The notes beneath the pieces are model-generated. The model made no database searches. It saw only the letters and a program-made list of their open reading frames with translations, and had not been told where the DNA came from. From Escherichia coli (GTDB lineage: Bacteria > Pseudomonadota > Gammaproteobacteria > Enterobacterales > Enterobacteriaceae): a stretch of DNA of 64,000 nucleotides. The translations under genes were made by a program, and so were the position numbers. The DNA is taken from the NCBI RefSeq assembly GCF_013122565.1, contig NZ_CP053258.1, one strand, 5' to 3'. Shown here piece after piece: positions 63,860 to 63,876 of the stretch. Position 1 is the first letter of the stretch, and the number at the start of each line of letters is the position of its first letter.

Positions 63860-63876
63860 TGCCGAAGTCAATTGGT
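63860..63876. promoter_or_regulatory. Candidate PdhR operator in the pdhR promoter
   Basis: Perfect palindrome AATTGGT-ctt-ACCAATT about 22 nt upstream of the pdhR start; matches the GntR/PdhR-type inverted repeat. Confidence 0.65.

Follow-up and report, generated by a model that had tools for sequence, protein, structure and literature searches.

A perfect inverted repeat lies ahead of pdhR in the 64-kb stretch of DNA analyzed here (the window), and the question it raises is whether this repeat is the site through which PdhR controls the pdhR-aceEF-lpd operon, and where it stands relative to the promoter. By setting the amount of pyruvate dehydrogenase, the PdhR operator acts where glycolysis meets the TCA cycle in E. 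coli. Pyruvate biosensors built on PdhR use it as their working part. Its characterization dates back to 1995, and standard regulatory databases list it.

An exact search showed that AATTGGTCTTACCAATT occurs only once in the window, and a repeat finder returned it as a perfect 7-3-7 inverted repeat with arms at 63870-63876 and 63880-63886 and a spacer at 63877-63879. On the gene strand (minus) it reads AATTGGTAAGACCAATT. The original prediction had placed a 17-bp perfect palindrome at 63860-63876. The palindrome is real and perfect, but its position had to be moved by +10: the interval 63860-63876 reads TGCCGAAGTCAATTGGT, that is 10 nt of flank and the left arm only, and the coordinates given were therefore 10 too low.

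Palindromy itself was rejected as evidence, since 7-3-7 repeats occur at chance frequency in the window: we counted 8 perfect ones, compared to 4.5 +/- 2.0 expected from 100 dinucleotide shuffles, and 8 of these 100 shuffles reached at least 8. What carries the weight is the exact sequence, together with where it lies and how well it is conserved. The palindrome matches the consensus (A)ATTGGTnnnACCAAT(T), as printed in PMC7660256, at all 14 specified bases. No other place in the 64-kb window matches ATTGGTNNNACCAAT without a mismatch. By chance, 64 kb should contain the 14 specified bases of AATTGGTnnnACCAATT 1.8e-4 times, and the exact 17-mer was absent from 100/100 shuffles of the window. 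The features of the locus are collected in the table.

Table. Operator, promoter and genes of the pdhR-aceEF-lpd locus (window coordinates)
Feature	Position	Strand	Basis and remarks
PdhR operator (PdhR box)	63870..63886	minus	14/14 consensus match; inside published gel-shift probe; arms invariant in 80 other species
pdhR transcription start (+1)	63896	minus	PMC2759082 promoter sequence and -58 position mapped onto the window
Inferred core promoter	63903..63931	minus	-35 TGGACA 63926-63931, 17-nt spacer, -10 TACTTT 63903-63908; read from sequence relative to the mapped start
pdhR	63074-63838	minus	254 aa + stop; GntR/FadR-type repressor binding the operator; NF007001 profile
aceE	60250-62913	minus	E1 subunit of pyruvate dehydrogenase, second operon gene; TIGR00759, 1645.8 bits
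aceF	58343-60235	minus	E2 subunit; NF008814, 1101.5 bits
lpd	about 56711-58198 (mechanical ORF)	minus	E3, dihydrolipoyl dehydrogenase; TIGR01350, 501.2 bits

Matches to the last 1 kb of the window occur in 5,423 of 5,426 complete E. coli genomes, which annotate the gene as pdhR. The window is the E. coli chromosome in reverse orientation, with all four genes of the operon on the minus strand. Plasmid-typed records, probably misassigned replicons, account for three of the 5,423 matches to the pdhR region. The pdhR product scores 495.7 bits against the NCBIfam PdhR equivalog NF007001 (cut-off 330), aligned over 1-254/254, and the families scoring next are LldR, GlcC and NanR. This full-length match, with an N-terminal GntR winged-helix and an all-helical C-terminal effector domain, places the protein in the FadR subfamily of GntR regulators. 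Two PDB chains, 5kvr (residues 1-75, DNA-binding domain) and 5tpm (97-254, C-terminal), carry the name pyruvate dehydrogenase complex repressor. A search of the PDB and the literature for an E. coli PdhR-DNA complex found only these separate domains; entries 9jpj, 9jpk and 9jpl also bear the PdhR name, but their similarity is distant (E = 6e-20).

Two gene starts deserve attention. The longest mechanical ORF of pdhR has 265 aa and begins within the palindrome, with a TTG at 63871. According to the profile alignment (1-254/254) and to the ATG found at the same place in 80/80 orthologous loci, the true start of pdhR is the ATG at 63838. Automatic longest-ORF calling at the TTG would hide the operator within coding sequence (63839-63871). 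For lpd, the TIGR01350 match begins at residue 28 of the 495-aa ORF, and the true start is likely to lie ~21 codons inside it.

We then placed the palindrome relative to the promoter. The pdhR start site is an A, 58 nt before the ATG, confirmed by 5'RACE, and the promoter sequence has been printed (Olvera et al., 2009, PMC2759082). This sequence maps exactly to window positions 63896-63934, which sets +1 and puts the PdhR box at +11 to +27. The box thus lies within the transcribed leader, between the transcription start and the start codon, rather than upstream of the promoter. The proposal that the palindrome is just upstream of the pdhR start holds for the start codon, as 31 nt separate the end of the box from the ATG on the minus strand. 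The box is just past the start site of a promoter that has pdhR, aceE, aceF and lpd downstream. The -10 hexamer matches the consensus at just 3/6 positions, which explains why the sigma-70 elements of this promoter were described as 'poor' (PMC2759082). For the same reason, a consensus promoter and terminator scan of 63700-64000, which returned no matches, is uninformative here. Crp, Fnr and PdhR are given as regulators of the pdhR promoter (PMC2759082).

Published binding data can be laid directly onto this DNA. In the genomic SELEX study of Anzai et al. (2020, PMC7660256), the PdhR box consensus is AATTGGTnnnACCAATT, and Table 1 lists AATTGGTaagACCAATT in the aroP/pdhR spacer, 14/14, at K-12 position 122052, with peak intensities of 9,234-9,889. 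The window palindrome on the gene strand is this same AATTGGTaagACCAATT. Göhler et al. (2011, PMC3265435) used a 37-mer probe, PdhRop (GCCGAAGTCAATTGGTCTTACCAATTTCATGTCTGTG), for the 'known self-regulating' site, and this probe is identical to window 63861-63897. Purified PdhR strongly gel-shifts PdhRop, and the pdhR site was enriched 11.6-fold in ChIP (PMC3265435). In a 2025 bioRxiv biosensor paper, ATTGGTAAGACCAAT placed 11 bp from +1 of synthetic/constitutive promoters led to PdhR-dependent repression. The palindrome is almost certainly (probability about 0.97) the known PdhR operator of the pdhR-aceEF-lpd promoter. The original assignment to the type of site bound by GntR-family PdhR is borne out by the 14/14 box and by the gel shift, ChIP and SELEX peak published for the same DNA.

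It is the same object as the PdhR box of E. coli K-12 pdhR-aceEF-lpd (Quail & Guest, 1995; Ogasawara et al., 2007; Göhler et al., 2011; Anzai et al., 2020): 17-mer, order of the genes, spacing to the ATG and start site are all identical, and there are no differences. Other PdhR targets (ndh, cyoABCDE, glcD, mraZ, hemL, lipA, yfiD, fad genes and LEE1) share the regulator and the motif family. Among the sites of Table 1 of PMC7660256 that were compared, theirs are degenerate (8-10/14) and pdhR has the only 14/14 box, and the re-derived consensus of that paper narrows to GGTnnnACC. Some of these targets are activated, unlike the repressed pdhR operon. At the level of the subfamily, the operators of FadR, LldR, GlcC, DgoR and ExuR are A/T-rich palindromes with a TKGT/ACMA core 3 nt apart; the N-terminal winged-helix reads DNA, and effector binding in the C-terminal domain lowers DNA affinity (PMC4494728). 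The box core, TGGT-N3-ACCA, is of this type, while its AAT/ATT flanks and the pyruvate effector are specific to PdhR within the subfamily. The finding is correct and already known, and since the site has been characterized for so long and is in regulatory databases, its re-identification brings no new biology. Its main value is that of a positive control: a sequence-only reader recognized a real operator and its regulator, with a 10-base slip in the coordinates.

Within E. coli, 5,423/5,426 complete genomes share at least 99% identity over the 201-nt promoter region, so conservation inside the species is uninformative and we compared 80 other species instead. Species-representative genomes were scanned with the PdhR protein, which gave 80 loci with a PdhR 87-100% identical, all from Enterobacterales (Escherichia, Salmonella, Citrobacter, Kluyvera, Klebsiella, Raoultella, Enterobacter, Lelliottia, Kosakonia, Pluralibacter, Serratia and others). 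A 14/14 box was present in 80/80 loci, 30-48 nt ahead of the pdhR ATG. In a box-anchored comparison of these loci and the window, both 7-nt arms were invariant in 81/81 sequences. The +2..+10 flank of the promoter showed 2-4 different bases per column in the same 81 sequences, and the box spacer varied among the 80 loci (AAG in 72, CAT in 3, ATG in 2, ATT in 2 and CAG in 1). The distance from the box to the invariant GTTACTTTA of the -10 region was 15 nt in 81/81 sequences; across the 80 loci, indels were seen between the box and the ATG and none between the promoter and the box. As far as sequence comparison goes, invariant arms at a fixed distance from the promoter are the pattern expected of a position-fixed protein-binding site. 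Because the entire 165-nt upstream region is well conserved (72/165 positions invariant, pairwise identity 128-145/165), the invariant arms discriminate less well than they would if the surrounding sequence evolved faster.

One of the 80 loci comes from an assembly titled Chryseobacterium sp. 18061 (L039, CACSKA010000010.1), although the pdhR locus that it carries is enterobacterial, with a protein 93% identical and a box free of mismatches; another locus from the same study (L037) is titled Citrobacter sp. 18056. The L039 assembly is probably mislabelled or contaminated.

Concerning the response to pyruvate, PdhR represses pdhR-aceEF-lpd and the PdhR-pyruvate complex is stated to be unable to bind DNA (PMC3265435 and PMC7660256, citing Quail & Guest, 1995). 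In vivo, aceE mRNA is increased in a pdhR mutant, and addition of 3 mM pyruvate to the wild type brings it to the same level as in the pdhR mutant. Gene order, published PdhR binding and this rise in aceE mRNA support the predicted pyruvate-relieved autorepression of the operon. At low pyruvate, PdhR would sit on the palindrome and keep pdhR-aceEF-lpd, pdhR included, repressed. By analogy with FadR-type regulators, it would bind as a dimer in which each subunit takes one AATTGGT/ACCAATT half-site. With the center of the box at +19 and its first base 11 nt past the start, bound PdhR would lie on DNA needed by RNA polymerase for initiation and escape, and the operon would be repressed because PdhR occupies DNA that the polymerase must hold and traverse. 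The blocked step may be polymerase binding, open-complex formation or escape. When pyruvate rises, it would bind PdhR and weaken or abolish its DNA binding, and the operon would be derepressed. The outcome would be substrate induction of pyruvate dehydrogenase together with negative autoregulation of PdhR.

One published measurement does not follow this scheme. For the pdhR site, Table 1 of PMC7660256 gives SELEX intensities of 9,889 with pyruvate and 9,234 without, so that pyruvate gave no visible release of PdhR from the perfect box in that experiment, despite the stated loss of DNA binding. PdhR may then remain on the 14/14 site at high pyruvate, and derepression would need more than dissociation, for example an altered complex that lets the polymerase pass or a contribution of a leader hairpin. 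We give this a slim chance, and leave it open because the SELEX signal is equal with and without pyruvate, the spacer AAG is kept in 72/80 species although the consensus does not specify these bases, and the box is transcribed at the 5' end of the leader.

It is very improbable that the palindrome acts mainly as RNA, folding close to the 5' end of the pdhR leader into a 7-bp hairpin that controls mRNA stability or translation. The box is indeed inside the 58-nt leader, and the hairpin is present in both the minimum-energy and the centroid folds. However, the leader folds at -11.9 kcal/mol compared to a mean of -12.3 for shuffled sequences (z = 0.16), and it has no Rfam match, even at E <= 1. 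A stem would tolerate covariation, but the arms never vary in the 81 sequences and hence there are no compensatory substitutions. Direct PdhR-DNA binding is documented (PMC3265435), and the box moved into other promoters still gives PdhR-dependent repression (2025 bioRxiv). On the z-score, the missing Rfam family and the lack of compensatory changes, we rejected a cis-regulatory leader RNA as the main role.

Less probable still is that the site serves mainly another FadR-subfamily regulator with a TGGT-N3-ACCA-like motif, such as LldR or GlcC, and that PdhR binding is incidental. By profile score, PdhR has no closer paralogues than these two, and the TKGT/ACMA core with its 3-nt gap is common to the subfamily (PMC4494728). 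Yet PdhR binds this very DNA in vitro and in vivo in published work, aceE is derepressed on loss of pdhR, and the box is directly ahead of pdhR in all 80 species; cross-recognition by LldR or GlcC is unneeded to explain the data. A chance palindrome without function, for which the near-chance number of 7-3-7 repeats in the window (8 versus 4.5 +/- 2.0) could speak, is excluded by conservation and published binding data: the 14 bases in exactly this pattern have an expectation of 1.8e-4, they do not change in 80 other species while neighboring positions do, and binding is published for the exact sequence.

Besides the PdhR operator of pdhR, the window holds a second near-consensus PdhR box, ATTGGTCATACAAAT, at 10880-10894, with 1 mismatch to ATTGGTNNNACCAAT. 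It is within the divergent spacer between clcA (9445-10866, minus) and hemL (11091-12371, plus), 14-28 nt upstream of the ATG of clcA and ~200 nt upstream of that of hemL. PMC3265435 cites hemL among the direct targets of PdhR, whereas for this region PMC7660256 lists no more than a weak peak, at 173132 in fhuB and without a box.

Three further elements were observed upstream of pdhR, all given on the gene strand. At the edge of the window, TGAAACGTT (63988-63996) contains the palindrome AACGTT. It resembles half a Cra box. This assignment is doubtful because Cra binding has been placed downstream of the promoters of this operon (Kim et al., 2018), and the site may be incomplete because the window ends there. 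Closer to the start, a 22-nt block, GGTGAATACTTTGTTACTTTA (63902-63923), which covers -28 to -7 of the pdhR promoter, shows no variation among 71 distinct upstream sequences that represent many genera. This block is longer than the PdhR box and mostly promoter spacer, and its conservation goes beyond the usual need of a spacer. Two ArcA binding regions have been reported upstream of pdhR (PMC3798270). The block contains TGTTA. Finally, the inverted repeat ATGATTTCAATCAA (63940-63953, -57 to -44) is of the type TTGAT-N4-ATCAA, the FNR consensus, and varies little across species.
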